From an uncultured Candidatus Saccharibacteria bacterium (GTDB lineage Bacteria; Patescibacteriota; Saccharimonadia; Saccharimonadales; Saccharimonadaceae): DNA of 64,000 nucleotides. This document shows, in pieces, positions 1 to 32,349 of the stretch. Where the stretch lies: the NCBI GenBank assembly GCA_963539465.1, contig CAUTMI010000002.1:47168-111167 (forward strand), read 5' to 3'. Every line of letters starts with the position of its first letter. The first letter of the stretch is position 1. A model generated the notes under the pieces. That model ran no database searches, was not told where the DNA came from, and was given only the letters and a program-made list of their open reading frames with translations. The translations under genes and the position numbers were made by a program.

Positions 1-1
1 G

Positions 2-247
2 ATTGATAAGGTGCTCGGTCAACCTGAAAAGACTGTGTTAGAGTGCGAAATTGTCCCTCGTCGTGAAGCACGTAGGTCTCTTGTCTTAACTAGAAGCATG
101 AAAGCTGGAGAGAAAATTACGGAAAACGATATTATGCCAAAGCGTCCAGGTACTGGAATTTCACCAAAATACACCGATATTGTACTTGGTAGGGAAGTAA
201 AACGGGATCTAGAAGAGGATACAATCCTCACATGGGATATGGTGTAA
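2..247 (+). CDS. 3' end of a NeuB/PseI-family nonulosonic (sialic-type) acid synthase, C-terminal SAF domain; the 5' end lies outside the window
   Basis: The frame is open from the window edge. The translation ...IMPKRPGTGISPKYTDIVLGREVKRDLEEDTILTWDMV resembles the SAF/antifreeze-like C-terminus of NeuB-type synthases. A hairpin terminator follows. Confidence 0.55.
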   Translation: MDKVLGQPEKTVLECEIVPRREARRSLVLTRSMKAGEKITENDIMPKRPGTGISPKYTDIVLGREVKRDLEEDTILTWDMV

Positions 248-275
248 TTGTAACAAAAAATGTAAGATAAATTAA

Positions 276-314
276 AAAACCTCCGGTCGAAACAATTAGA
301 TTAGGAGGTTTTTT
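276..314 (+). terminator. Rho-independent terminator
   Basis: AAAACCTCC (276-284) pairs with GGAGGTTTT (304-312), followed by a T-run. Confidence 0.7.
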
Positions 315-394
315 GAATTAGAACACATGGGTTTTATTTTACTAGATATGTTTTATGATAAAATATCACCACAAAACCACGAAAGGAAAACATC

Positions 395-658
395 ATGAAC
401 AAACAAAAAATCAACACTATTGTCGGGTCAGTCGGAGCTTTTATAGGAGTCTTCGTCTTCATAACCTACATCCCACAAATCCTCGCTAATCTCGCCGGCA
501 ATAAGGCCCAACCGTGGCAGCCACTCACCGCTTCAATGTCATGTCTCATCTGGGTTATTTATGGCTGGACCAAGGAGCCAAAAAAGGACTACATCCTCAT
601 TGTCCCAAACCTCGCCGGTGTCGTGCTCGGATTCCTTGCATTTGTGACTGCACTATAG
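395..658 (+). CDS. SemiSWEET / PQ-loop family small sugar transporter
   Basis: 87 aa with three predicted TM segments. It has an IPQI motif in TM1 and a WxxYG motif, typical of bacterial SemiSWEETs. Confidence 0.65.
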   Translation: MNKQKINTIVGSVGAFIGVFVFITYIPQILANLAGNKAQPWQPLTASMSCLIWVIYGWTKEPKKDYILIVPNLAGVVLGFLAFVTAL

Positions 659-740
659 TCGTTCCAGATATTAATATTCTTCCGGAGATTAATGTCCTTA
701 CACGGATTCTAAATTCAACATCCACCATACTTAATTTCCT

Positions 741-845
741 ACTTGACGCTCATATATCTAAGTGATAATATATAAGCATTAAAACCTCCCCCCGATATTG
801 TTTCGGGACTAGGAGGTTTTATTTTTTTACTAAATCATGATATAT
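741..845 (+). repeat. Left copy of an about 100-bp direct repeat flanking the CRISPR-Cas module (promoter-like TTGACG-17-TAATAT, hairpin 781-820, T7)
   Basis: Near-identical to 7201-7305 (a few substitutions and a 1-nt indel). TTGACG is at 743-748, TGaTAATAT at 763-771, the hairpin AAAACCTCC/GGAGGTTTT at 781-820 and the T-run at 822-828. Confidence 0.85.
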
Positions 846-909
846 TTATACCAGAGCCGGGGCTAGATTCCGGCATCTCCATTTTAAGATTCTAAGAACC
901 TCCTCCCTC

Positions 910-940
910 TTGACATATCCAAGCAACTGGTATATATAAT
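910..940 (+). promoter_or_regulatory. Sigma70-type promoter of the tracrRNA
   Basis: TTGACA at 910-915. TATATA lies 17 nt downstream (933-938), overlapping TATAAT at 935-940. Confidence 0.6.
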
Positions 941-946
941 ACCCAT

Positions 947-1068
947 AATCCCTTAAGTAAGGATTATGCTACTATCGAAGTTTATTAGGTCTCTATAATA
1001 ATATAGATTTCTAATAATCTATGTAAAGCTCTAAGGTATTTCCTCGTGAAATACCTTATCTTATTTTC
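947..1068 (+). ncRNA. tracrRNA: tracrRNA of the type II-C system
   Basis: 963-999 (ATTATGCTACTATCGAAGTTTATTAGGTCTCTATAAT) is a near-full-length anti-repeat to the minus-strand reading of the CRISPR repeat, with G:U wobbles, one bulge and one 3-nt internal loop. It is followed by a nexus-like hairpin (1003-1009/1016-1022) and a terminator hairpin AAGGTATTTC/GAAATACCTT (1033-1057) with a U-rich tail. The 5' end is predicted from the promoter only. Confidence 0.75.
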
Positions 1069-1113
1069 TAGCTATCTTTGGTAAAACACCCCATTTCTCC
1101 ATTCCGCTTCTGC

Positions 1114-1141
1114 ATGACAAAACAAGAAGCTGTGATATAAC
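1114..1141 (+). promoter_or_regulatory. cas9 promoter (ATGACA-16-TGaTATAAC) placed for a leaderless transcript
   Basis: The -35-like ATGACA is at 1114-1119 and the extended -10 TGATATAAC at 1133-1141. Only 6 nt separate the -10 from the cas9 ATG at 1148, and there is no Shine-Dalgarno sequence. Confidence 0.5.
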
Positions 1142-1147
1142 ATAGAT

Positions 1148-4100
1148 ATGAACTACTCTTTAGGACTGGATATCGGCACCACATCCTGTGGTTGGTCCGT
1201 TATTAACTTAGACAAAAAACGTATTGAAGATCTCGGAGTCCGTATCTTTGAGGGCGCAGAAAACCCTAAAAATGGCCATTCTCTTGCCGAGCCACGTCGT
1301 GAAAAACGCGGCATGCGAAAACGTCTTCATAGGCGCCGCATCCGTCTCAACTTTCTCAAACAATTCTTTATTCAGCAAAAAATTCTAAGTAATCAGCAAA
1401 TTGAATCTCTCCTCGCGCCACACAAGAACCAAATTGATCCATATGCCGTTCGTGAAAAAGCTCTCTCAGAAAAAATTACTCCTGAAGAATTATTTATTGC
1501 ACTGTATCATATTGCTAAGCGCCGCGGCTATAAATCAAATAGTCGCGCAGAATCAAGCGGCGATGCTGATGAAAACAAGAAGACGCTTAGCGCAATCACT
1601 GCCAATCAAGTATTTCTAAAAGAATACCAGACCGTTGGTGAAGCTCTCAACCATGCTGAAAAATTTAAGTCTCATAAGCGAAATAAGCCAAACGATTATA
1701 GTAACTCCTTTGCCAGGGCAGACTTTGAGGATGAAATTAAGAAGATTCTCAATAAACAGTCTGAGTTCTATCCAGTTCTTAATGAAGAAAAAATTCAGGA
1801 ATTATTATATAGTGAAAATTTCGGTGTCTTATTCCAACGCCGTTTTATGACACCTGAGTTAATTGAGAAAATGCGCGGCAAGTGTCAATTTGAAAAGGAT
1901 AAACCACGCGCCCAAAGAGCCTCATATTCTTTCGAGCTTTTCCGTCTTGCTTCTGATCTAGTCCACCTTACCTATAATATGGGCAATAAACTAACCATCG
2001 ACGAAATTGCAGCCTGTATTGAAAAAGCTAAAGAACTTTCTGTTTTAAAATATTCTCATATTCAAAAAATCCTAGCCGAGGACGTGGAGGACGAGATTAA
2101 TTTTGACTATATTCGTGGTCTGAAAAGAAAAGATCTCATTAAGGATGAGGCTGAAGCGAAAAAGAAAGCACTTGAACAAAAATTCGGAGAACTAAAATTC
2201 TACCATGCCATAAAAAAGGCTCTCAAAGATCAGCCCGCAGAATGGAAAGATATCGAATCAAATATTGAATTATTTGATAATATCGGCTTTGTTCTTACCG
2301 CTAATAAGGAAGATGACTCAGTTAGGGAAGAGTTGAAGAAGTTGGGTCTAAAACCTTCGGTTATCAACGGGATCTCTAATATTAAGCAATCTTTCGCAGG
2401 TTTTGGCCACCTTTCACTCAAAGCTCTTCGTAAAATTACTCCATTTATATTACAGGGGGAAACTTATGATAAAGCCGTTGTTGATGCTGGCTATATATTT
2501 ACTGCCAAGATTTCTGGCAACTCGAATCGTCTACCGGCTCTCTCAAAGGAAGAAAATAATCAAATCACTAATCCAGTCGTAAAACGTGCAATTTCGCAAA
2601 GTATTAAAGTGGTAAATGCAATTATTCTAAAATATGGCGCCCCCACCAGGATTCATATTGAGTGTGCTTCAGAGCTTGCTAAAAGTTATGATAAACGCAA
2701 TGAAATTATCAAGACTCAGGATGAGAATCGTGAAAATAACGAAAAAATTATTGCACGTCTTAAAGAAGAGTTCCATGTATTATCTCCAACTGCTACGCAG
2801 ATTACAAAATTCAAACTCTACGAACAACAGGACGGTAAATGTCTCTATTCTGGATCCCCAATCGATCTTAATCGACTCTTTTCTGACGAACATTATTGTG
2901 AAATTGATCATATTATTCCAATATCACGCTGTGGCAATGATGGTATGATTAATAAAGTTCTTGTTTTAAACCAAGAAAATCAAGAAAAACGCAATCAGAC
3001 TCCATTTGAGGCTTGGGGAAGTGATGAGAAACGTTGGCAAAGCTTTGTTGCACGCGTTGAGTCAAATCCTAAAATCTTTGCAAAAAAGCGTGCGAGACTT
3101 CTTGCTAAAACTCCACCAAAAGAGGACTGGAATGTGCGTGCTTTAAATGACACCAGGTATATCACAAGATTCCTCGCAAACTATTTTAAGCAGAATCTTA
3201 AATTTGCAGACCATACAGATGGTAAAAAAGTGGTCTATACCCCAACTGGCAATATCACTTCCTACCTCCGTCATGTCTGGCACATCGGCAAGAAGGACCG
3301 CTCAAAGAATCTTCATCACGCTGTTGATGCAGTAATTACGGCCTTAGTTACCGATGAGGTAGTTAGGCAATGTGCTTTGATGAATAAAATGATTGAATTG
3401 GGTGCCAAATATAAAACCAAGGGTATCAATCTTGCGGATTATCAAAATGGTATGCTTGCTGCTACTGACCCGGTTACTGGCGAAGTTGTTGATCTCGCGA
3501 AATATGAAGAAGTCCGCGAATCTGTCCTTCCTTGGCCAAATTTTGATCACGAAGTTCGTTTTCGCACTACTCCACTCGCTTGTTTTATAACTGAGGATAA
3601 AGAAGATAAGAAGAAATCTGAGTCGGGTCAGTTATCGGAAGAAGCAAAAACTCATCTTCAAAATGCTTCAGTCAATACCCTAGCTGAATGGCGTGATCAG
3701 TTTAGAGAAATCTATAAAGACCAAGATGAGGAGTTTAGGAGTTCTATTCACCCAATTTTTGTTTCTCGCATGCCAAAGCGCAAAGGCACAGGCAGCCTAC
3801 ATGATGATACAATCCGCTCACCAAAAGGGATTTTAATTGATGAAAAAACTGGTATTGTTTCGGCTAATCCAAATCGTAGTTCATTCATTCGCAAGAGGTT
3901 GCAAGATGTTAAAATCGCAGATTTGGAAAAATCTATCCTAAAACAAAGCGATAAGTTGTTATATCAGCAGTTGGAAAATCTTCTCGAAGCTAATGGTGAT
4001 GATCCTAAAAAAGCCTTCAAGGAACCTGTCTATAAAAATAATGTTAAGTTCGATAAGAACGGGCATCCACTTTCTCCAGTTACAACAATCAAGATCAATG

Positions 4101-4543
4101 ATGATAAAAGTGTAAAATCCGGTATTTCACTTAACCATGGCACTCAATTTGTAAATAATGGCTCTATGGTAAGATTAGATGTCTATCAGAAGGACATAAA
4201 GGGGGAAAAGAAACTATTTTATGTACCAATCTATACGCATCAAGTCCGTAAGGGATCAAATCGTATCCTTCCAACCACCTGCGGCTATAATTTTGCCGAC
4301 AATACTTTTACTAAACTCTGCTCAGTTTATCCTAATGATTATCTAATCATGAAAAAAGGCGATGAAATATTACAAGGATACTATATTAAATACAATGTTA
4401 ATAATTCAGCTATATCATATACGTCAAATATAAAAGAGGGTCGATCTGATTTTGTTAATGCGACAGGTCGTGCGCTTTCTGAGCTCTATCGCCTAGATAT
4501 CTCAGTTCTCGGCGACAATTATCCTTGGGAAAGAATGTACTAA
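1148..4543 (+). CDS. cas9: Cas9 endonuclease, type II-C
   Basis: 1131 aa. Motifs present: RuvC-I LGLDIGTTSCGWSV (D8); Arg-rich bridge helix EPRREKRGMRKRLHRRRIRL; RuvC-II IHIECASEL; HNH EIDHIIPISRCGNDGMINKVLVLNQENQEKRNQTPFE; RuvC-III HHAVDAVI. Adjacent to cas1, cas2, the array and the tracrRNA, with no csn2 or cas4. Confidence 0.95.
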   Translation: MNYSLGLDIGTTSCGWSVINLDKKRIEDLGVRIFEGAENPKNGHSLAEPRREKRGMRKRLHRRRIRLNFLKQFFIQQKILSNQQIESLLAPHKNQIDPYAVREKALSEKITPEELFIALYHIAKRRGYKSNSRAESSGDADENKKTLSAITANQVFLKEYQTVGEALNHAEKFKSHKRNKPNDYSNSFARADFEDEIKKILNKQSEFYPVLNEEKIQELLYSENFGVLFQRRFMTPELIEKMRGKCQFEKDKPRAQRASYSFELFRLASDLVHLTYNMGNKLTIDEIAACIEKAKELSVLKYSHIQKILAEDVEDEINFDYIRGLKRKDLIKDEAEAKKKALEQKFGELKFYHAIKKALKDQPAEWKDIESNIELFDNIGFVLTANKEDDSVREELKKLGLKPSVINGISNIKQSFAGFGHLSLKALRKITPFILQGETYDKAVVDAGYIFTAKISGNSNRLPALSKEENNQITNPVVKRAISQSIKVVNAIILKYGAPTRIHIECASELAKSYDKRNEIIKTQDENRENNEKIIARLKEEFHVLSPTATQITKFKLYEQQDGKCLYSGSPIDLNRLFSDEHYCEIDHIIPISRCGNDGMINKVLVLNQENQEKRNQTPFEAWGSDEKRWQSFVARVESNPKIFAKKRARLLAKTPPKEDWNVRALNDTRYITRFLANYFKQNLKFADHTDGKKVVYTPTGNITSYLRHVWHIGKKDRSKNLHHAVDAVITALVTDEVVRQCALMNKMIELGAKYKTKGINLADYQNGMLAATDPVTGEVVDLAKYEEVRESVLPWPNFDHEVRFRTTPLACFITEDKEDKKKSESGQLSEEAKTHLQNASVNTLAEWRDQFREIYKDQDEEFRSSIHPIFVSRMPKRKGTGSLHDDTIRSPKGILIDEKTGIVSANPNRSSFIRKRLQDVKIADLEKSILKQSDKLLYQQLENLLEANGDDPKKAFKEPVYKNNVKFDKNGHPLSPVTTIKINDDKSVKSGISLNHGTQFVNNGSMVRLDVYQKDIKGEKKLFYVPIYTHQVRKGSNRILPTTCGYNFADNTFTKLCSVYPNDYLIMKKGDEILQGYYIKYNVNNSAISYTSNIKEGRSDFVNATGRALSELYRLDISVLGDNYPWERMY

Positions 4544-4549
4544 AATATC

Positions 4550-5443
4550 ATGGCTTGGCGTACGGTTTATCTAGAGCAACAAACAAAACTTTGGTTAAGC
4601 CGGAACAATCTGTGTTTTTCTCATGACGAAGCAGAGTTGTCTGTTCCGATTGAAGATATTGATACCTTAGTAATTGACAATCACGGCACAAAAATCACCA
4701 CAAATCTCATCGATAGTCTCGCCAACCAAGATGTAGCTATTATAATATGCGATTCTTCACATCTACCAAGTACCGTAATTTTGCCCTACGCGAAACATTC
4801 ACGTCAGGCCAAGATTTCTAGTGATCAGCTAAAAATGCGCCAGCCAATCAGAAAGCAGCTCTGGCAGAAGAACATTATTCAGAAAATTCTTAATCAGGCA
4901 GAGGTCTTAAAGAGATTCAATTTAGAATATTTGGAACTAAACAAGCTATCTGGACTTGTTAAATCTGGTGACACTTCAAACTGCGAGGCAGTTGCCGCAA
5001 GAATTTATTTTAATCAACTACTCAGTGATTCGACTAGGCGTCAGCCAACCTGGTATAATTCTGCTCTTGATTATGGATATAGTATAGTGCGAAGTTGTAT
5101 CGCTAGGAGTGTAGCTTCGCATGGACTTATCGCCTCGCTAGGAATCTTTCATCACAATGAACTAAATAATTTCAATCTAGTGGATGATCTTATCGAATGT
5201 TATCGTCCATTTGTTGATCTCTATGTTTTGAAGACAGTCCGCTTGCGGCATATTGGAGAAGAAGCTGATGAGAATCTAACAAAAGATGATCGAGTCCTAC
5301 TGACACAAGTTGTCAATGAAAATGTCAGAATTCGCAATTTATCTTATTCCATAAAACACAGTGTTGATATTACGGTTGAAAGTTTTATTGCTGCATTTCA
5401 GAATGAAGATTTTAGTCTGTTTGAACTTCCGGAATTTTGCTGA
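4550..5443 (+). CDS. cas1: Cas1 integrase
   Basis: 297 aa. The N-terminus MAWRTVYLEQQTKLWLSRNNL is typical of type II Cas1. It starts 7 nt after the cas9 stop. Confidence 0.9.
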   Translation: MAWRTVYLEQQTKLWLSRNNLCFSHDEAELSVPIEDIDTLVIDNHGTKITTNLIDSLANQDVAIIICDSSHLPSTVILPYAKHSRQAKISSDQLKMRQPIRKQLWQKNIIQKILNQAEVLKRFNLEYLELNKLSGLVKSGDTSNCEAVAARIYFNQLLSDSTRRQPTWYNSALDYGYSIVRSCIARSVASHGLIASLGIFHHNELNNFNLVDDLIECYRPFVDLYVLKTVRLRHIGEEADENLTKDDRVLLTQVVNENVRIRNLSYSIKHSVDITVESFIAAFQNEDFSLFELPEFC

Positions 5444-5473
5444 TTAATAATTTTTGGGTGGGAGAAAGAAAAT

Positions 5474-5800
5474 ATGAGTAGTTATAATTTTATGCGAGCT
5501 CTAGTCTTATTTGATCTACCAACTGATACCAAACTTAATCGAGGAAACGCTACGCGGTTCCGAAACTATCTATTAAACGACGGATTCACGATGTTGCAAT
5601 ACAGTATTTATAGCCGACTCTGTCCAGATCGCGATAATGCAAATACTCACCTTGAGCGAGTGAAAAAGCATGCCCCACATGAAGGGTCTATTCGTATGCT
5701 GATGCTGACTGAGAACCAGTTCACTAATATGGAAGTGATTTGTGGTAATAAAACTGAACAAGAAAAATATATCGGCGAGGAGCAGATGCTGCTATTTTGA
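5474..5800 (+). CDS. cas2: Cas2
   Basis: 108 aa. MSSYNFMRALVLFDLPTDTKLNRGNATRFRNYLLNDGFTMLQYSIYSRL closely parallels type II Cas2 N-termini. Confidence 0.85.
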   Translation: MSSYNFMRALVLFDLPTDTKLNRGNATRFRNYLLNDGFTMLQYSIYSRLCPDRDNANTHLERVKKHAPHEGSIRMLMLTENQFTNMEVICGNKTEQEKYIGEEQMLLF

Positions 5801-5825
5801 ATTAGAGAATAAGTATAAGTATAAT
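5797..5825 (+). promoter_or_regulatory. Canonical sigma70-like promoter at the cas2 stop, pointing toward the array
   Basis: TTGAAT (5797-5802), a 17-nt spacer, then TATAAT (5820-5825). Confidence 0.45.
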
Positions 5826-5890
5826 AAAAAACTATTCTTAAAAAATAGTCTCCTGAGAAAAGAGACAGAAAACCAAAATGCTTACCCAAC

Positions 5891-5922
5891 AAAAAATCTT
5901 CCATTAACAGGGAAGATTTTCT
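5891..5922. terminator. Bidirectional hairpin terminator between cas2 and the array
   Basis: AATCTTCC (5895-5902) pairs with GGAAGATT (5911-5918). It is flanked by an A-run upstream and TTTTCT downstream. On the minus strand the hairpin is followed by TTTTTTG. Confidence 0.6.
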
Positions 5923-5939
5923 GTAAGTAAATTTGTAGT

Positions 5940-7096
5940 ATTATACTACTATCGAAATTGTTAGGGGACTATAACTAGCAATATATCGCTTCTTGAACTG
6001 TATCTATTATACTACTATCGAAATTGTTAGGGGACTATAACAGTCGCATAATAGTATTAAAGTATCTTCGAATTATACTACTATCGAAATTGTTAGGGGA
6101 CTATAACTCGTGATAGCGTGTAGGTTCCAGGGACTAAATTATACTACTATCGAAATTGTTAGGGGACTATAACTAATCCCCAACAAAAGAAAAAATCAGG
6201 GCGATTATACTACTATCGAAATTGTTAGGGGACTATAACCGATCCGAGATCACCTCAGTATACAGAATGATTATACTACTATCGAAATTGTTAGGGGACT
6301 ATAACCGATAAAGTCATCATTATTCAGATAATTCGATTATACTACTATCGAAATTGTTAGGGGACTATAACTAATCTCTCTTTTCTTTCAATAGTGGCTC
6401 TATTATACTACTATCGAAATTGTTAGGGGACTATAACAGACTTTCGCACCAGCCCAATCTCAACTCCATTATACTACTATCGAAATTGTTAGGGGACTAT
6501 AACATAGAATCAAGTGAGGTTGAGGCAGCGTGAATTATACTACTATCGAAATTGTTAGGGGACTATAACCTTGGTCACTGTTATAGTATTGCCGCTCAAT
6601 TATACTACTATCGAAATTGTTAGGGGACTATAACTCGCAGAAGCTTGCTGTTGAGCGTCTGCACATTATACTACTATCGAAATTGTTAGGGGACTATAAC
6701 TTATAGCATTGCGCCCTGTTAGCGAAGTACATTATACTACTATCGAAATTGTTAGGGGACTATAACATCCGTGCTAAGTCCTTAAAGTCCACCTCTATTA
6801 TACTACTATCGAAATTGTTAGGGGACTATAACTTAGAATGGCTTAAAGACATGGATTATAAAATTATACTACTATCGAAATTGTTAGGGGACTATAACAT
6901 CTATGGCACTCAGACGGTTGGAATCGAAATTATACTACTATCGAAATTATTAGGGGACTATAACCAGCCGTTCACATACATCATAAACATCACGATTATA
7001 CTACTATCAAAATTATTAGGGGACTATAACTGGGCATTGGGGATGACTCTGATCGCTAGCATTATACTACTATTGAAATTATTAGGAGGTTATAAC
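5940..7096 (-). CRISPR. CRISPR array with 18 repeats and 17 spacers; functional crRNA polarity inferred to be the minus strand
   Basis: The 36-nt repeat ATTATACTACTATCGAAATTGTTAGGGGACTATAAC (+ strand) recurs with a 65-66 nt period and unique 29-30 nt spacers. The repeats starting at 6929, 6995 and 7061 are progressively degenerate. The reverse complement GTTATAGTCCCCTAACAATTTCGATAGTAGTATAAT has type II-C form. The polarity follows from the plus-strand tracrRNA. Confidence 0.95.
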
Positions 7097-7154
7097 TACA
7101 GCAGAGAATCCAGAAAAGGGTCAGACACCCAATATATCGGGTGCCGCCACTAGC

Positions 7155-7183
7155 AACATATCACAAAATAACCAAAATATCAA
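7155..7183 (-). promoter_or_regulatory. Candidate external promoter reading into the array from its cas-distal end
   Basis: On the minus strand: TTGATA (7183-7178), a 17-nt spacer, then TGaTATGTT with the hexamer at 7160-7155. Confidence 0.35.
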
Positions 7184-7200
7184 TAGTAACGTTAAGGCCC

Positions 7201-7305
7201 AGTTGACACTCATGTTTTCTAGTGATAATATATAGACATTAAAACCTCCCCCCGATATGTTTCGGGACTAGGAGGTTTTATTTTTTTACTAAAACATGAT
7301 AGTAT
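7201..7305 (+). repeat. Right copy of the about 100-bp direct repeat flanking the CRISPR-Cas module
   Basis: TTGACA at 7203-7208, TGaTAATAT at 7223-7231, the hairpin AAAACCTCC/GGAGGTTTT at 7241-7279 and a T-run at 7281-7287. It aligns with 741-845. Confidence 0.85.
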
Positions 7306-7419
7306 GTGTCCAAGCCCTGACGGAGTTTCTAGATAACTCCGTCAGTGTAGCCACGCTTCGCCGTGGTATTTTTATACCAAAAAATAATCCAGATTATCTA
7401 TATATGTAAAAGTAATCTA

Positions 7420-7490
7420 TGATATAATCAAAGCCATAAACACCCCCTCCATCTAAGAGGTAATTAGTCCTCTGAGGGGATGTTTTTTTG
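7420..7490 (+). ncRNA. Candidate small RNA unit (extended -10, hairpin, T7), function unknown
   Basis: TGATATAAT at 7420-7428. The hairpin pairs CCCCTC (7444-7449) with GAGGGG (7474-7479), with inner stem AGAGG/CCTCT. A T-run lies at 7483-7489. No ORF. Confidence 0.3.
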
Positions 7491-7518
7491 TCGAAAAATC
7501 ATATTGCCTAGCTTCATC

Positions 7519-7606
7519 TTGACGCGTAATAAAGTCTATACTAGTATATTAATACTAGAGACCCCTCGACTCCGAGCTTCGGCTTGGATTTGGGGTCTCT
7601 TTTATT
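7519..7606 (+). ncRNA. Candidate small RNA unit (TTGACG-17-TAGTAT, 9-bp hairpin, T-rich tail), function unknown
   Basis: TTGACG at 7519-7524 and TAGTAT at 7542-7547. AGAGACCCC (7557-7565) pairs with GGGGTCTCT (7592-7600), followed by TTTATT. No ORF. Confidence 0.3.
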
Positions 7607-7683
7607 CCTTAATTTCCACCAATATTTGTAGCTTAAAATTATTACCTTGATACCATCACTTTTTCCAGAATATCTTATTAAAA

Positions 7684-8535
7684 CTATTCAGCAGACTCAC
7701 TAAGTTTCTTAAGTCCAGACTCTCCTCCCCCAAGTTTTCTACTAACTTTCTTCTCAATTTCCTTAATATGAACCTCTGGTGGAAGGTTCTCTGGCATCGT
7801 TCCGCCAATGTCTTTTATAGTCTGTCTCACTTTACCACCGATCATGAAATGTATTGAGTCCGCTTTTTGTTCGCCAATTGTTTTACCACTTGCTAGTTCA
7901 TTCTGTAGCTTGTCATTGGTTTGAGTGATACGGAAGAGATTCGCTGCTAGTTCGGTTGTTCCAGCCCTATCTAGAATCTTATCTTTTCCAAGATTCTTTT
8001 TCAAAGCAAGCTCCTTAGCGTTCATACCGTAAAGCCCACGATATCCCGCATCATTAAATTTTCCAAAATTCCTTACGCCACTAGATTTTGCAGAGTCGAA
8101 CAGCGTCTTATTATTGTCAATAACTTGCGTACGTACATGCAGTCTCTTCTCTTCATCAGACATCGACTGGAATTGTTCCTGCCTAAAAGTCTGAATATTA
8201 AAATACGCTTGTGCTTGTGCAATTTCTGGTTTGTCTGGATCGCCATTTTGAGCAATAAGATAGCAGGCATACTTAGATAGCTCGAAATCCACAACGGTAC
8301 GTTCTGCACCTTTTCCCGTCCGTATCATTTTTCCCGCTTGGCGAAAATGATCGTTTATGTTGTAATATTTTGTAATTTTGCTTGTTTCAAAAGATTTCTT
8401 GGCTCTATTGATAGCATTCTGAAATTTATCCCAACTGGCATACCCCAGAATCTTCTGCAGCTCCCTTGCACTCCAAAACTCACGACTCGTGTCGTCGTGT
8501 CGAATGTCATCAAAAATACTAATCTCAGCTGACAT
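7684..8535 (-). CDS. dinD: DNA-damage-inducible protein D (DinD / Bro-N-like family)
   Basis: 283 aa, collinear with E. coli DinD motifs: WSARELQKILGY, LSKYACYLIAQNGDP, GYRGLYG, GTTELAANLFR, KVRQTIKDIGGTMPE. GGAGGA lies upstream of the ATG, and a TTGATT-18-TATAAT promoter lies on the minus strand near 8584-8613. Confidence 0.85.
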   Translation of the reverse strand: MSAEISIFDDIRHDDTSREFWSARELQKILGYASWDKFQNAINRAKKSFETSKITKYYNINDHFRQAGKMIRTGKGAERTVVDFELSKYACYLIAQNGDPDKPEIAQAQAYFNIQTFRQEQFQSMSDEEKRLHVRTQVIDNNKTLFDSAKSSGVRNFGKFNDAGYRGLYGMNAKELALKKNLGKDKILDRAGTTELAANLFRITQTNDKLQNELASGKTIGEQKADSIHFMIGGKVRQTIKDIGGTMPENLPPEVHIKEIEKKVSRKLGGGESGLKKLSESAE

Positions 8536-8844
8536 TTAATTCCTCCACTTTATTATTAATTAAGTTCTCTCGCTCTCTGCCAGTATTATACTTGGATTTT
8601 GTAAATAAAATCAACTGAATTCATGGTGGATTTTTAGTGTCTATAAATATAATAAAAAGATGTAGGAAAACCTACTTTTTGGTCTGTATATTTTACTTAC
8701 TTTAATCAGTAAATTGACGTCCGGAAATATCCTACAAGTGATTCTCAAAACTTCTGTGTCGGTGCTAAAATATGTAAAAGAGTTCATTCGCTAGGTTTTG
8801 TTCCTAGGACAAGAGGACCTCTTTTTATCGAAATGCCACTAGTG

Positions 8845-8901
8845 TTATTTGAGGGTTTTAACCATTTTTCCCACTTGGCGAAAATGGTCTTTTATGTTGT
8901 G
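8845..8901 (-). pseudogene. Short relic of a second dinD-like gene
   Basis: 8863-8900 matches dinD nucleotides 8326-8363 at about 34 of 38 positions. It translates as HNIKDHFRQVGKMVKTLK*, compared with dinD YNINDHFRQAGKMIRTGK. It is bounded by stop codons. Confidence 0.4.
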
Positions 8902-8945
8902 TTATGTTAACCGTACCTTTGTTTTTTTGGTATTAATACCAAAAG

Positions 8946-9233
8946 CTATTGCCTGCTCTTAAAGAAATCTTTCCAATAGGGGTTTTCTTTGTCAAAAATT
9001 TCCTTTTCATGCTGATTTAAAGCCCATGGATAATCTCGAAAAAGCCAGTATACTTTCTTTTTATCAAAGGAAAACACATGATCGCCAAATCCCATAGCAT
9101 CATTGAGATCGCTATTAGAAACTCTTCCAGATTTGATATCATCTTCTAAAATACCATGATAGACTGTCCCCCACCAAATCTGATCACTCTGATTTTCTTT
9201 ATTCCACTCAATATAAATATTATCTTCTGTCAT
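8946..9233 (-). CDS. Hypothetical protein (95 aa), last gene of the two-component operon
   Basis: An ORF abutting the histidine kinase gene. No recognisable motif. Confidence 0.45.
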   Translation of the reverse strand: MTEDNIYIEWNKENQSDQIWWGTVYHGILEDDIKSGRVSNSDLNDAMGFGDHVFSFDKKKVYWLFRDYPWALNQHEKEIFDKENPYWKDFFKSRQ

Positions 9234-9242
9234 TGTATTTTA

Positions 9243-10259
9243 TTATACCACCACCTCAAACTCAGCGCCCCGCCCCTCGCCGCTTCGAAGCACAATTTTA
9301 TACCCCTGTCGCTCTGCTAGATTCTTTGCAATCGCCAGTCCCAGCCCATGACTCGTCTTATCCTCCGTCCTAGTCCTCGCTGCGTCCACCTGATAAAATC
9401 GCTCAAAAATCCTCTTCTGATCTTCTTTCTTCACTCCCACCCCGTTATCTTTCACGCTAAACACCGCATTTTTTCCGCGTCGCCCCGCCCGTAAATAAAT
9501 AATCTTTTCCCCTGAATACTTCATCGCATTATCTGCAAAAATCGTCAAAATCTGCTCCAGCGTATTTTTTGACACACTCGCTCGCAAATTCTTCCCAAGG
9601 TTCATCTCCGTCTCAATCTTCACTCCGCGCTCCTTCGCCACTGGCGCCAATTTTTCTTGCAAATCAGCTAAAAACTCAGGCACATTAATCTCAATCGACT
9701 TTTCTGACTCGCCATTCTCCCGCGCCACGTCCAGCATCGAAGCTGTCAGCTCTTTCATCTTTAAAATCTCTTCAATATTTTTCTCGATCACCTCGCGAGC
9801 CTTTTCTTCCGGCAAACTCCTCTTCCTCAGCGCCACCTCGTTCCTCAGTAACATTGCCGTCAAAGGTGTCTTCAATTCATGGCTCGCATCGAAGATAAAC
9901 TGTGTTTGTTTCATCATCGCCCGTTCAATCGGCGCCAATGTCAATCTTGCCAAGCTTCGGCTCACAAAAATTCCGATAAAGAAAATCCCAAGATTAAAAC
10001 TCACCAGGGAATAGACAATCGTCGTGCGCGTGGTATTGTCCCGCTTGTCCAGCCGCTTTCGAAAATTATCCTCAAAAGAATGCTCCTCAAATTCTGGTGC
10101 CTCTATGCTGACACTCGAGTTTTCTTCTTCGCTTGGCAGGAGTGGCCTATTCAAGCTCGCTGTCGACAGTAAATAAATAATTCCCGTAAAAATCAAGGAC
10201 AGGGTCATGATTACTGCGAGATAACTCAAAGTCAAACGATTTACTTCAGATTTTTTCAT
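9243..10259 (-). CDS. Sensor histidine kinase
   Basis: Two N-terminal TM segments. H-box SHELKTPLT, N box DNAMKY, G boxes DNGVGV and GLGLAIAK. Confidence 0.85.
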   Translation of the reverse strand: MKKSEVNRLTLSYLAVIMTLSLIFTGIIYLLSTASLNRPLLPSEEENSSVSIEAPEFEEHSFEDNFRKRLDKRDNTTRTTIVYSLVSFNLGIFFIGIFVSRSLARLTLAPIERAMMKQTQFIFDASHELKTPLTAMLLRNEVALRKRSLPEEKAREVIEKNIEEILKMKELTASMLDVARENGESEKSIEINVPEFLADLQEKLAPVAKERGVKIETEMNLGKNLRASVSKNTLEQILTIFADNAMKYSGEKIIYLRAGRRGKNAVFSVKDNGVGVKKEDQKRIFERFYQVDAARTRTEDKTSHGLGLAIAKNLAERQGYKIVLRSGEGRGAEFEVVV

Positions 10260-10327
10260 TACTTCTATTCTAACTTATTTTCAAAATTACTCATCCCTAC
10301 TCCGTGAGTGTGGGGAGTCAAATTGAC

Positions 10328-11008
10328 TTATTTCGCCTTCTCGCCCACAATCTTATAGCCAAATCCAGGCACGGTCTGGATCAATTTTTGCTTATAAGGT
10401 TTATCAATCTTCTTTCGCAAAAACATAATAAATAACTCCACATTATTCGGCAACACGTCCGCATCAAAGTCCCAGACGTTCGAAATGATTTTCTCTTTCG
10501 ATAAAACCTTACCTTCATTTCGCATCAAATATTCCAGTACTGCATACTCTTTAGTTGTTAATTTAATTTCATCTCCCGCGCGCGAGACACTTTTTGAACT
10601 TGGATCAAGTACAAGATCCGCCACCCGCAAGACTTCCTCTAGTTTTTGGGTTGGGCGCCTCAGTAGCGCACGCATATGAGCAAGTAGAACTTCAAAATTG
10701 AACGGTTTTGCTAGGTAGTCATCTGCTCCATAATCGAGCCCCTTCACCACATCCTGTGACTGTCCTCTTGCTGTTAGCATCAGAATCGGCGTGGTATTCT
10801 TTTCCGCCCGCAGCTTCTGGCAGACTTCAAATCCATTCATTGATGGGAGCATCACGTCAAGAATAATCAAATCATATTCTTCCGCCATCGCTGTATGGTA
10901 GCCATCCTCGCCGTCAAAGCAGGAATCCACTGCATATGATTCGTCCTCCAGCCCCTCTTTCAATGCCTCATTAATTTCTTTATCATCTTCAATAATTAAA
11001 ATCTTCAT
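10328..11008 (-). CDS. OmpR-family response regulator
   Basis: A receiver domain (IIEDD, ILDVMLP, LAKPF) plus a winged-helix C-terminus (LTTKEYAVLEYL, GFGYKI). Confidence 0.9.
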   Translation of the reverse strand: MKILIIEDDKEINEALKEGLEDESYAVDSCFDGEDGYHTAMAEEYDLIILDVMLPSMNGFEVCQKLRAEKNTTPILMLTARGQSQDVVKGLDYGADDYLAKPFNFEVLLAHMRALLRRPTQKLEEVLRVADLVLDPSSKSVSRAGDEIKLTTKEYAVLEYLMRNEGKVLSKEKIISNVWDFDADVLPNNVELFIMFLRKKIDKPYKQKLIQTVPGFGYKIVGEKAK

Positions 11009-11023
11009 AAATATAACTTCAGT

Positions 11024-11398
11024 TTAATAAGCAAACGTAACAGCCTCAGGCCACATCGCGTTCACTAACTTCTTACCTTGACTAGTCACGCTTACTAAAA
11101 TTTTACCATAGGTCTGTTGGATTACCGTAAGAAGTCCCTTCGATTTTAGCTCCGTCAACACATTCATTGTCACCTTCTTTGGCATTCCGGCCTGGTCCAC
11201 AATATTATCCACATCATCCATCCCCTCCTCAAAAACCTGCTGCAAAATAAGAGCCTCATTCACCGACAGATCCATCTGCTTGCTTTGCTTGGATTTATTA
11301 GTTTTTTGGCTCTTATTTTTCATCACTTTCTCCTTCTTTAAAGTTTTCTTGATTAAATTTTCATCTTCCGCGTATAAGTTAACATCATAATTTTTCAT
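11024..11398 (-). CDS. Small putative winged-helix DNA-binding protein
   Basis: 124 aa with a Lys-rich N-terminus. The C-terminal half (DNIVDQAGMPKKVTMNVLTELKSKGLL) looks like a MarR/Lrp-type wHTH. The start may be an internal Met. Confidence 0.4.
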   Translation of the reverse strand: MKNYDVNLYAEDENLIKKTLKKEKVMKNKSQKTNKSKQSKQMDLSVNEALILQQVFEEGMDDVDNIVDQAGMPKKVTMNVLTELKSKGLLTVIQQTYGKILVSVTSQGKKLVNAMWPEAVTFAY

Positions 11399-11505
11399 TT
11401 TATTCCTTTCGTTTATGATGCTTATAGTTTACAAAGATGTTCTTTAAAACCGCTTTAAATTTTGGAGATTTTTTCTTAAATTACTATCTGTTAATAGATT
11501 ATTTT

Positions 11506-12096
11506 TTACCTAATATTATTTGATCGATTACCAGGGGCACCTTGTCTATTCGGTCCGCTCTGTTGATTCTCACCTTGTCCACCAGGTCCACCTTGTTGAC
11601 CACCGCCTTGTCCGTTACTATTTGGAACGCCCTGTGTTCCGCTTGTATTTGCTCCGCCTGGTTCCCCTTGTGCGTTTTCATTGGTGGTATTACTAGTTCC
11701 GTCTTGGCTTTGACTATTTATCATTCCAGGTCCGCCCTGTTGATTATTACTTTGTCCGCCCGGTCCACCTTGTTGACCACCGCCTTGTCCGCTCGGTCCG
11801 CCCATCTGGCTGCTCATCCCGCCAGGACCCCCTTGTCCGCCAGGTCCACCCATTCCGCCCCTCATACTATTATTGCCAGATACCTGTGTCCCCACAAAGA
11901 AACATAATGCCGCAATCGTCACGCCACCAGCCGCAATCCCGGCAATGGTTCCAACCTTCGTCTCTTTTTTACTTTTCTCTGAAATCTCGTTCATTCTTGT
12001 CCTTTCATAAAAATTATTTTCCCCCACATTTTCCCCAGAGTTCTCCCCCGCATTAATCTGGGCCGCTTCATGAGCCCAGAAATCGTCACTTTTCAT
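11506..12096 (-). CDS. Membrane-anchored Gly/Gln/Pro-rich low-complexity protein
   Basis: 196 aa with one TM (TIAGIAAGGVTIAALCFFVG), then repeated GGPGGQ/QQGGPGG units. It sits in an operon with the glycosyltransferase fusion. Confidence 0.5.
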   Translation of the reverse strand: MKSDDFWAHEAAQINAGENSGENVGENNFYERTRMNEISEKSKKETKVGTIAGIAAGGVTIAALCFFVGTQVSGNNSMRGGMGGPGGQGGPGGMSSQMGGPSGQGGGQQGGPGGQSNNQQGGPGMINSQSQDGTSNTTNENAQGEPGGANTSGTQGVPNSNGQGGGQQGGPGGQGENQQSGPNRQGAPGNRSNNIR

Positions 12097-29757: not shown

Positions 29758-32349
29758 ATGGATTCTGGAATGCAAAATAATCAACCAAAAACACCTGCTT
29801 CAAGCACGGTAGACGCTGCCATGAAGGCACCACATCCGGGCGGTGACTCTGATTTTGGTCTGAATCCAGAAGACGCCGTCTCAAAGGTTGCTGATAAAAT
29901 CCAACATGCCACCAATATCTTGATCGCCCTCTCTAAAGACCCTAATGTTGATGAGATTTCTGCCGCCATCGCTCTAGCCTTTGTTCTAGACCAGCAAAAG
30001 AAGCACGTTACTGCTATCTATTCCGGCCAGACTCCAAACGCGCTTGAATTTTTGCGCCCTGAAGAAACCTTCCAAAAAGACATTAGTGGCTTGCAAGATT
30101 TTATCATCGCCCTCAATAAGTCGAAGGCCGACCATCTTATCTATCAGGTTGAAGGTGATTATGTCAAAATCCTTATCACCCCATACAAGGGTCAAATCAA
30201 AAAAGAGGATCTAGAATACTCCTATAGTGACTACAATGTTGACCTCGTGATTGTCTTTAATGTTAATTCTGGCAGCGAAATCGACTCCGCCCTCTCTGAA
30301 TATGGGCGTATCATGCATGATGCTATGGCGATTAATATTACCTCCAGTGTGCCGGGTCGCTTTGCAGATCTTGAATGGAGTGATCCATCAAAATCTTCCG
30401 TTTGTGAAATGGTCTATGACTTACTTGGTGAGCTTGAAATTGACAATACTCCACAAGAAGTTGCCACTGCGCTTCTTACTGGTATTCTCTCTGCCACCGA
30501 ACGCTTTTCCAATAATCGCACTAAGCCAACTACAATGGCGGTCGCCTCAAAACTCATGGAAGCCGGCGCCGACCAGCAGCTAATCTCCTCCAATATCTTA
30601 AAAGCAGAGACTGCAGCTGCAGCTGCCGAAAACCCTTTTGCTACCCAATCCCCAATCAAGAATGAAACACCAGCAGCTCCAGCTACCCCAGAAGCACAAG
30701 GGGCTCCAGTAACTCAAGAGACACAAGAGGCTCCAGCGACTCCAACCATTCAAGAAACTCCAGAAGCATCAGCAGCTCCAGCTGCTCAGGCATCCCCAGC
30801 AGCTTCAGCAGCCACTCCAGAAGTCCCAGCCGTTTCGCAGGATTCCGCTGAGACACCACAACTCACTCCCGAACAAGAACTTGAACGTATGTTTGAACAG
30901 AATCAGGCTTCCCAGTCTCAGGCCCCTACTTCAGGTAGCTCACTCCCTGGAAACTCTATGGTTGCCGCCTCGAACGTAATGGACGACTTAGCTCGCCTCA
31001 CTGACTCAATGTTGAGCGCAGAGTCTCCAGCAGCACCAAATGTTACTCCAGCTGCTCCCGTTGAGCCTATAGCTCCAAATATTCCAGCGGTACCAGAAAA
31101 TATCCCAGCAGCCCCAGAAGTACCAGCGGCGACTCCAACTATTCCTGTCGCACCGGAAAATATTCCAGTCGCGCCAGAAAATTCTCCTGCTCCAAATATC
31201 CCTGTCGCACCAGAAAAACCAACTATTCCAGCATCCCCAGCGCAGCCTCAGTATATTCAACCGCAGCCGATGCAATATCAATCAGTACAGCCGCAACCAC
31301 AGCAATATCAGCCTGTGCAACCTCAACCAGAACAGATTCAGCCGATGCCTCAAATGCAGGCCGAATATCAGCCAACTCCTCAATTTGTTCAGCCTGCTAC
31401 ACAACCAATTCAGCCTGCTCCTCAGCCAGCCCAGCCAGCCTTCCGTCCTCAACCAGCTTCAAACCCTGAAATTTATGGTCACACCATCGCCGAACCGGTC
31501 ATAGATTCCGGTGAAGACATGAGTCGTCTGATGGATGAAGCCCTCGCTGAGCCTTCTCCAATCCAGAATCCAATCGGTTACCAGGGAATGATTAATCAAT
31601 CCAACTACATTAATCAGTCTCTTAATCAAAATACTACGCCAAATTATCCGCTTGCTGTTGGTCAGCAACCGGTTACAAATTACCAGCAGGGCCAAAATCT
31701 TGCAACGCTTTCCGCGCCTGCCTTGCCACAAATGCCACAAAATCAGGCCTACCCAAATCCTGAATACTCAAATGTGGTTCCAGAGTACCAAACTCCAGCT
31801 ATGCCGGTTCTCCCTGAGGATCCATCACAGCCGGCTCCACAACCAGTTCAACCTACTCCACAGCCTATCCCACAGCCTGCTCCTCAGCCAGTCCAGCCAG
31901 CTCAACCACAAATGCAGGTTCCAACTCAGCCTGCCCCAGAGCCAATTCAGTCACAGCAGTCAATGGATAGCTACATTCAGGCCACTCCACCAGCCACCAG
32001 CACGCCAATCCCGGATTTTCTTCAGCCCGAATCATTCCTGCCGCCAGCTCCAGCCCCAGTAATTATCGATCAGGCCGCGCCTCCATTCATGCCACCAGCT
32101 ATGCCTGCCCCACAGCCTATCTCACAGCCTATCTCACAGCCTATCTCACAGCCTGCTCCTCAGCCAGTCCAGCCAGCTCAACCACAAATGCAGGTTCCAG
32201 CTCAGCCTATCCCAGCTCCAGCTCAACCACAAATGCAAACTCCAGTCCAGCCAACCCCACAGCCAACTCAGCCGCAGACCCCAGCCGATCCGGCCGCCAA
32301 TCCAGTCAAGGCCGATCCATCTGCTTTTCATATCCCAGGCAGCTACTAG
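29758..32349 (+). CDS. Degenerate DHH/NrnA-like N-domain fused to a long Pro/Gln/Ala-rich tail
   Basis: The first about 270 aa are collinear with DHH-family phosphoesterases found upstream of truB in many bacteria, but the DHH-type His/Asp motifs are not evident. The remaining about 590 aa are PQA-rich with internal repeats. Confidence 0.5.
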   Translation: MDSGMQNNQPKTPASSTVDAAMKAPHPGGDSDFGLNPEDAVSKVADKIQHATNILIALSKDPNVDEISAAIALAFVLDQQKKHVTAIYSGQTPNALEFLRPEETFQKDISGLQDFIIALNKSKADHLIYQVEGDYVKILITPYKGQIKKEDLEYSYSDYNVDLVIVFNVNSGSEIDSALSEYGRIMHDAMAINITSSVPGRFADLEWSDPSKSSVCEMVYDLLGELEIDNTPQEVATALLTGILSATERFSNNRTKPTTMAVASKLMEAGADQQLISSNILKAETAAAAAENPFATQSPIKNETPAAPATPEAQGAPVTQETQEAPATPTIQETPEASAAPAAQASPAASAATPEVPAVSQDSAETPQLTPEQELERMFEQNQASQSQAPTSGSSLPGNSMVAASNVMDDLARLTDSMLSAESPAAPNVTPAAPVEPIAPNIPAVPENIPAAPEVPAATPTIPVAPENIPVAPENSPAPNIPVAPEKPTIPASPAQPQYIQPQPMQYQSVQPQPQQYQPVQPQPEQIQPMPQMQAEYQPTPQFVQPATQPIQPAPQPAQPAFRPQPASNPEIYGHTIAEPVIDSGEDMSRLMDEALAEPSPIQNPIGYQGMINQSNYINQSLNQNTTPNYPLAVGQQPVTNYQQGQNLATLSAPALPQMPQNQAYPNPEYSNVVPEYQTPAMPVLPEDPSQPAPQPVQPTPQPIPQPAPQPVQPAQPQMQVPTQPAPEPIQSQQSMDSYIQATPPATSTPIPDFLQPESFLPPAPAPVIIDQAAPPFMPPAMPAPQPISQPISQPISQPAPQPVQPAQPQMQVPAQPIPAPAQPQMQTPVQPTPQPTQPQTPADPAANPVKADPSAFHIPGSY

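Follow-up and report, generated by a model that had tools for sequence, protein, structure and literature searches.

A 64-kb stretch of the genome of an uncultured oral Candidatus Saccharibacteria bacterium, a relative of Candidatus Nanosyncoccus (contig CAUTMI010000002.1, positions 47,168 to 111,167; hereafter the window) harbors a type II-C CRISPR-Cas locus, comprising a trans-activating CRISPR RNA (tracrRNA) gene, cas9, cas1, cas2 and a CRISPR array, which lies between a SemiSWEET gene and dinD and is bracketed by two direct copies of a roughly 100-bp element, referred to here as the boundary element (Table 1). The two copies (743-842 and 7203-7301) are identical in 92 of 101 aligned columns, as determined with MAFFT, BLAST and a global alignment; a single 1-nt indel falls in a hairpin loop (GATATTG versus GATA-TG), and the longest exact run common to both is 36 nucleotides (nt). 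In both, the homologous block starts with the -35 box of a promoter and ends with CATGATA, and a repeat search of the window returned the pair as the sole long two-copy family spanning the CRISPR locus. The original prediction, made from the sequence letters, had described two direct repeats of about 100 bp with few substitutions and one 1-nt indel, which is what the alignments show. Its statements that the CRISPR-Cas module alone separates the copies, and that no integrase, transposase or tRNA lies at the junctions, were likewise confirmed, the former by profile searches and array annotation and the latter by domain and tRNA scans: no tRNA was found in window positions 1-12000, and no integrase or transposase domain in the flanking window open reading frames (ORFs).

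Each copy combines a promoter, a hairpin and a run of seven T residues, again as predicted and here recovered by promoter scanning and folding. The promoters read TTGACG-17-TAATAT at 743-771 and TTGACA-17-TAATAT at 7203-7231, and their near-consensus hexamers, 17-nt spacing and TG upstream of TAATAT conform to a sigma-70 promoter sequence. About 10 nt past TGnTAATAT follows a bulged hairpin, AAAACCTCC-C-CCCGA / loop / TCGGG-ACTA-GGAGGTTTT, with folding energies of -20.4 (left) and -21.0 kcal/mol (right), z-scores of -5.2 and -4.1, and 0 of 200 shuffles as stable. In both copies it is directly followed by UUUUAUUUUUUU, as in an intrinsic terminator; the automatic terminator scan misses these hairpins because bulges interrupt them. 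When both strands of the window were scanned, this promoter-hairpin-T-run architecture was found at these two sites only. A weaker mini unit of like architecture is present at 7519-7611 (TTGACG-17-TAGTAT, hairpin GAGACCCC...GGGGTCTC, TTTTATT), and a terminator at 277-311, 3' of a NeuB-like gene, has the outer stem AAACCTCC/GGAGGTTT of the element around a different interior. A small ORF starting from the ATG in the tail (836 and 7296) was considered and rejected, the downstream frames being wholly unlike between the copies.

Judged by its Cas9 domains, cas1 and cas2 genes and predicted tracrRNA, the cargo between the copies is an ordinary type II-C CRISPR-Cas locus. Cas1 and Cas2 are the sole ORFs between cas9 and the array, where neither csn2 nor cas4 was found. 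The anti-repeat of the tracrRNA and the minus-strand repeat are predicted to form a duplex of -35.6 kcal/mol across the whole repeat, and therefore transcription of the CRISPR RNAs (crRNAs) would run leftwards through the array. On the crRNA (minus) strand, TATAAT forms the end of every repeat, which, together with the minus-strand terminator-like hairpin in the leader, suggests repeat-internal promoters, as in the II-C arrays of Neisseria and Campylobacter.

Table 1. Boundary elements, CRISPR-Cas genes and neighboring features, in window coordinates.
Feature	Position	Strand	Details
SemiSWEET gene, conserved left anchor of the hotspot	395-658	+	PF03083
Left copy of the boundary element	743-842	+	-35 TTGACG 743-748; TGnTAATAT 763-771; hairpin 781-820; T7 822-828; tail to CATGATA 842; heads the Cas9 module
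tracrRNA gene with promoter	910-1075	+	TTGACA 910-915; anti-repeat ~962-1000; terminator 1032-1058 + T-run; RNA ~945-1075
cas9, type II-C, 1131 aa	1148-4543	+	TIGR01865 706 bits (cut-off 100); HNH_4, Cas9_RuvC and RuvC_III domains
cas1	4550-5443	+	PF01867
cas2	5474-5800	+	PF09827
Leader, 139 nt, cas2 to first repeat	5801-5939		minus-strand terminator-like hairpin 5848-5866; kept in remnant loci L012, L014, L028
CRISPR array	5940-7096	-	18 repeats of 36 nt, 17 spacers; degenerate repeats at right end
Trailer, last repeat to right copy	7097-7202		conserved beside right copies in L002-L004, L007-L009, L020, L022-L024, L026, L032
Right copy of the boundary element	7203-7301	+	-35 TTGACA 7203-7208; TGnTAATAT 7223-7231; hairpin 7241-7279; T7 7281-7287
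Right flank with two further hairpins	7306-7400	+	second hairpin ends in terminator 7350-7367 + T-run; block recurs 3' of the element upstream of cas12a in L018 and L040
dinD, right neighbor	7684-8535	-	DinD equivalog NF008573 291 bits; Bro-N PF02498

The hairpin was searched for as a pattern in 185,579 species-representative genomes (GTDB) and in metagenome and viral (IMG/VR) contigs. Only three of the genomes contain it, all of them metagenome-assembled genomes of Saccharibacteria, including Candidatus Nanosyncoccus nanoralicus, and each of the three loci (L011-L013) has one match just downstream of an 87-aa SemiSWEET gene. The metagenome scan yielded 27 loci, of which those with informative record names derive from human oral metagenomes and most have a SemiSWEET gene within a few kb upstream of the element. 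The viral contigs gave no match with either the strict or a relaxed hairpin pattern; the strict pattern fixed the outer stem, and diverged copies such as that of L041 are invisible to it. When compared with the window features by BLAST, most pattern-derived loci fell into one and the same chromosomal hotspot, and none had more than two copies, for which reason we judge the element to be locus-specific rather than a dispersed terminator. The scenario that would have overturned the original prediction, a common repeat dispersed over many unrelated loci, did not materialize among these three genome, 27 metagenome and zero viral matches. A dispersed repeat resembling repetitive extragenic palindromes or miniature inverted-repeat transposable elements was set aside on the same counts (at most two copies per contig in three genomes and 27 metagenome loci), and a phage-borne repeat mimic or RNA anti-CRISPR is unsupported, given zero viral matches in two scans. 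More distant loci whose Cas9 is about 50% identical (L044-L047) are without the element. In one of these, a II-C locus with a Cas9 51% identical to that of the window, a small unit follows the array (L044 15422-15490), consisting of TGATATAAT, a repeat-like stretch and a terminator in repeat register, which may have arisen by decay of a repeat or may be a small unit of analogous kind.

The empty site that had been predicted, SemiSWEET-[one element]-dinD, exists in three independent human oral metagenome contigs (L015, L033 and the 192-kb contig of L027). These read SemiSWEET, intergenic stretch, one element, the counterpart of window 7306-7400 (then that of 7401-7683), dinD and DUF7675, with approximately 570 nt in place of the 7 kb of the window; the same left junction as in L027 is also found in L029, L030, L034, L036, L037 and L011. 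Relatives devoid of Cas9 thus keep one copy at this site, where their complete lack of the element would have spoken against the prediction. The flanks of the one-copy lineages are 88-97% identical to those of the window. The two-copy structure, in turn, recurs in at least six independent assemblies (L002-L004, L007-L009).

An alignment of 52 element copies (37 of them unique), drawn from 53 loci overall, shows that single copies are hybrids of left and right types. Those of L037 and L029 combine the left-type promoter spacer with the right-type loop and the right flank, L037 also sharing the rare TTGACG of the window, while those of L015 and L027 match left copies (e.g., that of L025) exactly as far as CATGATAG, beyond which the right flank follows. 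Crossovers hence fall into at least two different intervals of the element, which argues for homologous, presumably RecA-type, rather than site-specific exchange. Where two copies are present, promoter alleles (pA and pB) occur in different combinations, namely pA left and pB right in L032, pB left and pA right in L020, and pB on both sides in L024, and in L032 and L024 the loop of the left copy is of the right type, a sign of gene conversion. Because Saccharibacteria take up DNA by natural competence (PMC10633639), the site could be converted in either direction with DNA acquired from a strain in the opposite state. Recombination also appears to have occurred inside cas9, the first 850 nt of which are 93-94% identical to the window in L043 and L025 and the last 850 nt 77-81% (L016 was compared as well).

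Further loci display states beyond the occupied and the empty site. A full Cas9 module with a left copy only is found in L001, L005 and L010, where the array end abuts a Schlafen/AlbA_2 gene, and in the more divergent L048-L053, hence the Cas9 module does not need the right copy. Decay is visible as a leader with a single repeat in L012, L014 and L028, and as a truncated cas9 in L013 and L006. In L032, L020, L024 and L026, two element copies enclose a 380-nt remnant, in which the tracrRNA promoter runs into a hybrid GGATTATGCTACTATCGAA|ATTATTAGGGGACTATAAC and then the trailer; in L032 (3741-4070), window 846-980 is fused to approximately 7075-7200, and cas9, cas1, cas2 and the array are gone. 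By the make-up of their junctions, these remnant loci are attributed to recombination between the tracrRNA anti-repeat and a terminal CRISPR repeat, which constitutes a second built-in deletion route for type II loci with a tracrRNA so oriented. Beyond the right element copy, L002 (17679-17789), L003 (17699-17820) and L008 (18031-18152) have another copy of the last CRISPR repeat plus trailer; in L003 and L008 these repeat-trailer copies bracket two small ORFs, one with an HTH_Tnp_1 domain, and so represent another local duplication around an insert.

The right copy has its own context in other strains. In L018 and L040, cas12a (REC1, PF18501) is preceded at a distance of about 150 nt by an element and a block homologous to window 7306-7400, and in L019 the element immediately precedes the same leader of cas12a. 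The cas12a loci L035 and L019 have no Cas9 module in the interval from SemiSWEET to the element, while L018 and L040 stop short of SemiSWEET. The Cas12a module spans 1152-5053 in L018, where cas12a is split into two ORFs, and 948-2212 in L040. A solitary type V-A repeat, GTTTAATAATTAAAAATAATTTCTACTATCGTAGAT, is located 3' of the right flank in 13 other loci, including the two-copy Cas9 strains L002, L003 and L008 (solitary V-A repeats are seen, for example, at L029 13884-13919, L030 10786-10821 and the contig end of L011); in the window, neither Cas12a nor a V-A repeat was found. Hence the right copy with its flank is probably the head of an adjacent Cas12a (V-A) module that was deleted in this lineage, and the simplest anatomy would be [element-tracr-cas9-cas1-cas2-array][element-flank-cas12a ...], with both modules headed by the same unit. 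Type II-C1 systems have been described in Saccharibacteria before, and type V-A was reported from a single genome (PMC10746230).

Other cassettes occupy the interval between SemiSWEET and the element depending on the strain, namely a reverse-transcriptase pair, HipA_C with HIRAN, a SocA/Panacea pair and an AAA_13 ATPase. Such hotspot cassettes are located at L021 736-4100, L016 708-2717, L017 1297-2379, L035 9124-10792, L022 7298-9484 and L006 7723-9924, and in L017 and L021 a duplicated fragment of the SemiSWEET 3' end lies beside the element. No integrase domain was detected in the cassette proteins scanned, the only related find being the short HTH_Tnp_1 ORF of L003 and L008.

Besides serving as a recombination substrate, the element probably constitutes a genuine, if small, transcription unit or a terminator, because its promoter hexamers are conserved while the spacer sequence varies. 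Among the 37 unique copies, the major-allele frequency is 0.97 for the -35 box and 0.97 for TGnTAATAT, 0.77 for the spacer, the length of which is fixed at 17, and 0.66-0.68 for the flanks; the promoter lay outside the retrieval pattern, and homology between unrelated contexts starts exactly at the -35 box. A diverged version of the unit is found in L041 and L042, whose Cas9 is 68% identical to that of the window and whose module occupies another site (tRNA-Ala - tracr - cas9 - cas1 - cas2 - array) with neither SemiSWEET nor dinD. Approximately 240 nt past the last degenerate repeat, these loci have TTGACA-17-TAATAT, an extra 5' hairpin, and ATCTCCCCCCCGATATGTTTCGGGGCTAGGGAGAT with a run of six T. 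In L041 the inner stem and loop are identical to the right copy of the window, and the outer stem has changed from AACCTCC/GGAGGTT to ATCTCCC/GGGAGAT by three double substitutions, still folding at -21.9 kcal/mol with a z-score of -5.2, which amounts to compensatory base-pair change in one divergent homolog. Pairing is also kept in the left copies of L020 and L026, where an A-to-G change in the stem gives a G-U pair, and in the second hairpin of the right flank, through G-U pairs possible on the plus strand only and one A-U compensatory change. Taken together, the promoter, L041 and the right-flank hairpin favor a transcribed, structured plus-strand RNA. The small-RNA gene that the original prediction had offered in place of recombination is thus not an alternative to it, but probably holds in part as well. 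The hairpin with its U-tract would stop read-through from SemiSWEET or the cas operon on the plus strand and, because of the A-tract, would more weakly stop transcription from the dinD side on the minus strand. A search of window positions 1-9000 against Rfam 15 (E <= 1) produced no relevant match and two chance miRNA matches only. Within the hairpin, CGATATTGTTTCGGGACTA (loop and 3' arm, 787-805 and 7247-7264) shares 16 of 19 positions with the CRISPR repeat segment CGAAATTGTTAGGGGACTA (e.g., 6283-6301) when both are read in one orientation (p ~0.003), a score that none of 553 real segments attained. Drift in the degenerate repeat that closes the array (7061-7096) has produced TAGGAGGTT, the exact sequence of the element's 3' stem.

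From these comparisons we consider it fairly probable that the two module heads, being direct repeats, allow the whole Cas9 cassette to be lost or gained by ordinary recombination. Each unit of about 100 bp would comprise a sigma-70-type promoter that fires, after some 3-5 nt, into a bulged hairpin of 36-40 nt with a U7 tail, and would in effect be a tiny promoter-to-terminator RNA gene that also acts as a bidirectional terminator or insulator. In oral Saccharibacteria it would mark the upstream edge of class 2 CRISPR modules in a defense hotspot downstream of SemiSWEET, the left copy heading the II-C Cas9 module and the right copy together with 7306-7400 heading the deleted V-A Cas12a module. 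Homologous recombination between these directly repeated heads, whether intrachromosomal or after uptake of DNA from a one-copy or two-copy strain, would delete exactly the tracrRNA-cas9-cas1-cas2-array block and leave one hybrid copy, and the reverse exchange would re-install the block. The recombination footprint proposed in the original prediction is therefore supported by the one-copy sites and hybrids as far as gain or loss of the cassette through the repeats is concerned, except that the right copy is probably the boundary of a Cas12a module and not a scar of Cas9 insertion.

Several points weigh against this interpretation. All 14 contigs whose SemiSWEET protein is identical or 99% identical to that of the window are occupied, and all 14 of these same-species contigs carry cas9, truncated or split in some (L006, L008, L009); the clean one-copy sites come from the lineages with 88-97% identical flanks, which may therefore be sisters that never held Cas9 rather than products of deletion. 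The hybrids fit loss (left by right copy) and gain (from a copy-bearing donor) equally well, and the events are not polarisable. The near-invariance of the hairpin is in part a retrieval bias, as the search pattern fixed 24 hairpin positions. It is not obvious what function the product of a promoter that runs immediately into a strong terminator would have, recombination leaves the 16/19 similarity between hairpin and repeat unexplained, and the case rests wholly on the comparison of assemblies.

Instead of being the head of a second module, the right copy could be an insertion scar, left when one crossover of the Campbell type inserted a circular Cas9 module, with an element of its own, into an element already resident. 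The position of the element upstream of the tracrRNA in L048-L053 and downstream of the array in L041 would then reflect circular permutation, the hybrid patterns suit integration as well as deletion, and other hotspot cassettes are likewise bracketed by duplications (the SemiSWEET 3' fragment in L017 and L021, the trailer in L002, L003 and L008). However, the right copy with its flank is natively upstream of cas12a with no intervening Cas9 in L035 and L019, and L018 and L040 contain the same upstream cassette, so that a resident copy with the right flank existed independently; moreover, the circle junction trailer-element-tracr is present in no contig compared, and the flanks of the L041 element share nothing with the window trailer or tracr-side flank. 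An insertion scar is hence unlikely, if still deserving of some weight. A regulatory role, in which an RNA of about 50 nt, one per module, acts as an anti-repeat-like mimic of crRNA repeats or as a leader or attenuator of the cas genes, is more doubtful. The conserved promoter would fit it, every occurrence of the unit is next to a class 2 module or the remnant of one, in cas-gene orientation, at the second site of L041 too, and the 16/19 match is in the tracr sense, with a predicted duplex of -21.4 kcal/mol with the crRNA repeat (p 0.006). The hairpin itself (-20.4 kcal/mol), however, out-competes this duplex and cofolding predicts no pairing, and no Rfam family matches. In L041 the repeat reads GAGGACT (GAGGTCT in its last occurrence) in place of GGGGACT with no corresponding change in the element, hence there is no co-variation, and the unit is kept unchanged in loci such as L027 and L033, whose compared stretch contains neither a Cas9 nor a Cas12a gene. 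Recombination and regulation could also be joined, with the unit as a portable head of Saccharibacteria class 2 modules, both Cas9 and Cas12a, which makes an RNA or attenuator that sets or insulates expression and doubles as a homology handle by which competent cells swap, stack and discard modules. We regard this extended version as speculative and improbable; if true, adaptive-immunity genes would in effect have a cassette system that works without a recombinase.

It is very improbable that the element is a site-specific attachment site, the hairpin or AT-rich box of which is used by a recombinase encoded elsewhere (Xer/dif-like, integrase, integron- or IS605-like). Elements of the type integrative mobile elements exploiting Xer (IMEX) need no recombinase in cis, many kinds of cassette abut the element on both sides, the homology breaks sharply at the -35 box and at CATGATAG, and the hairpin is bulged. 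Against this stand the crossovers in at least two intervals within the element, the lack of an integrase, transposase or tRNA nearby, and the cumulative GC skew, which declines continuously along the window and does not turn near the element. The AT-rich box, when inspected, is unlike the dif consensus, with variable XerD-arm positions (AAGC/AAAC/AGAC), and peel-and-paste transposition would not leave one full copy. The specific candidates were rejected on these grounds: a dif/Xer (IMEX) site, despite a superficial likeness to XerC arm-TATATA-XerD arm, by the variable XerD arm and the GC skew; an integron attC or IS200/IS605 hairpin, by inspection, since there is no R-box consensus and no transposase and a full copy is left; and an integrase-mediated island, since neither an integrase or recombinase gene nor a tRNA is found at the junctions. 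In L041, a tRNA-Ala precedes the tracrRNA, the 3' end of which tRNA is not repeated downstream. Finally, the terminator at 277-311 shares the outer stem AAACCTCC/GGAGGTTT, as chance similarity or a generic terminator would allow, yet a 100-nt match at ~91% identity was never seen in shuffles. An assembly artefact is contradicted by the recurrence of the two-copy structure in at least six independent assemblies, by the lineage-specific substitutions of the one-copy contigs, and by the 36-nt exact run, which is too short for skip-chimeras at usual final k-mer sizes; chance and artefact are thus, as far as sequence comparison goes, effectively refuted.

The remainder of the window holds a few further repeats. 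Two 46-nt direct repeats, 87% identical, lie inside the start of dinD (8326-8371) and in the intergenic region upstream of it (8863-8908), and at 30664-32276 and 59982-60109 there are long, imperfect repeats with periods of 9, 12 and 18 nt and many CCA/GCT codons, which probably encode Pro/Ala/Thr-rich repeat proteins. Homologs of the SemiSWEET protein with 72-87% identity are annotated in Leptotrichia, Streptococcus and Oribacterium, which suggests that the gene has moved horizontally among oral bacteria. Exact-protein look-ups of the DinD and DUF7675 proteins of the window matched no record.

To our knowledge, CRISPR-Cas is rare and patchy in the candidate phyla radiation (CPR)/Patescibacteria, its gain and shedding there are poorly understood, and almost no regulatory RNAs are known from this group of organisms. 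The locus offers a concrete sequence-level mechanism for CRISPR-Cas turnover in these reduced genomes and supplies a candidate small RNA. A single hotspot holds Cas9, Cas12a and other defense cassettes in different strains, with a 100-bp unit repeated at module boundaries, and its natural alleles show occupied, emptied and partly decayed states in CPR populations. The turnover mechanism, the candidate RNA and the anti-repeat route are all testable in cultivable, transformable oral Saccharibacteria. What is particular here is the promoter-hairpin repeat heading two class 2 modules, the visibility of all intermediate states and the anti-repeat deletion route; overall, the locus is a well-documented case of CRISPR turnover and not a new class of system, and hence modestly novel.

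The loss of genomic islands and CRISPR-Cas loci by RecA-mediated recombination between flanking direct repeats is textbook knowledge, and CRISPR-Cas is variably present between conserved anchor genes in enterococci and Escherichia coli. The present locus resembles such repeat-mediated island loss in that direct repeats bracket the module, relatives have a one-copy allele and no dedicated recombinase was found, whereas it differs in that the repeat is not an insertion sequence, attachment site or gene fragment but a promoter-hairpin unit heading two CRISPR modules, and in its host, a CPR bacterium of reduced genome and natural competence. The II-C loci of Neisseria meningitidis and Campylobacter jejuni have repeat-embedded promoters, and their crRNAs are read towards the cas genes. 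The window locus shares with them the cas9-cas1-cas2 order without csn2 or cas4, the tracrRNA upstream of cas9, the 36-nt repeats ending in TATAAT and the cas-distal degenerate repeats, and by its sequence would also share repeat-internal transcription; we know of no flanking boundary element described for the Neisseria and Campylobacter loci. Small RNAs with repeat- or anti-repeat-like sequence lie beside type II loci in Francisella novicida (scaRNA) and Streptococcus pyogenes (tracr-L). Like these, the putative RNA of about 50 nt would have its own promoter and terminator beside a type II locus and has partial similarity to the repeat; unlike them, its similarity is in the anti-repeat (tracr) sense and buried in a hairpin with no co-variation in L041, and the unit also occurs upstream of cas12a and at cas-less sites. 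Small RNAs of the DapZ/MicL type, which arise from 3' untranslated regions, have their own promoter and share a terminator with the upstream gene. The boundary element is similar in that its promoter lies between the SemiSWEET stop codon and a hairpin that would also terminate SemiSWEET, but it is almost devoid of a single-stranded seed, and the unit is also found away from SemiSWEET, as the right copy, in L041 and after inserted cassettes.

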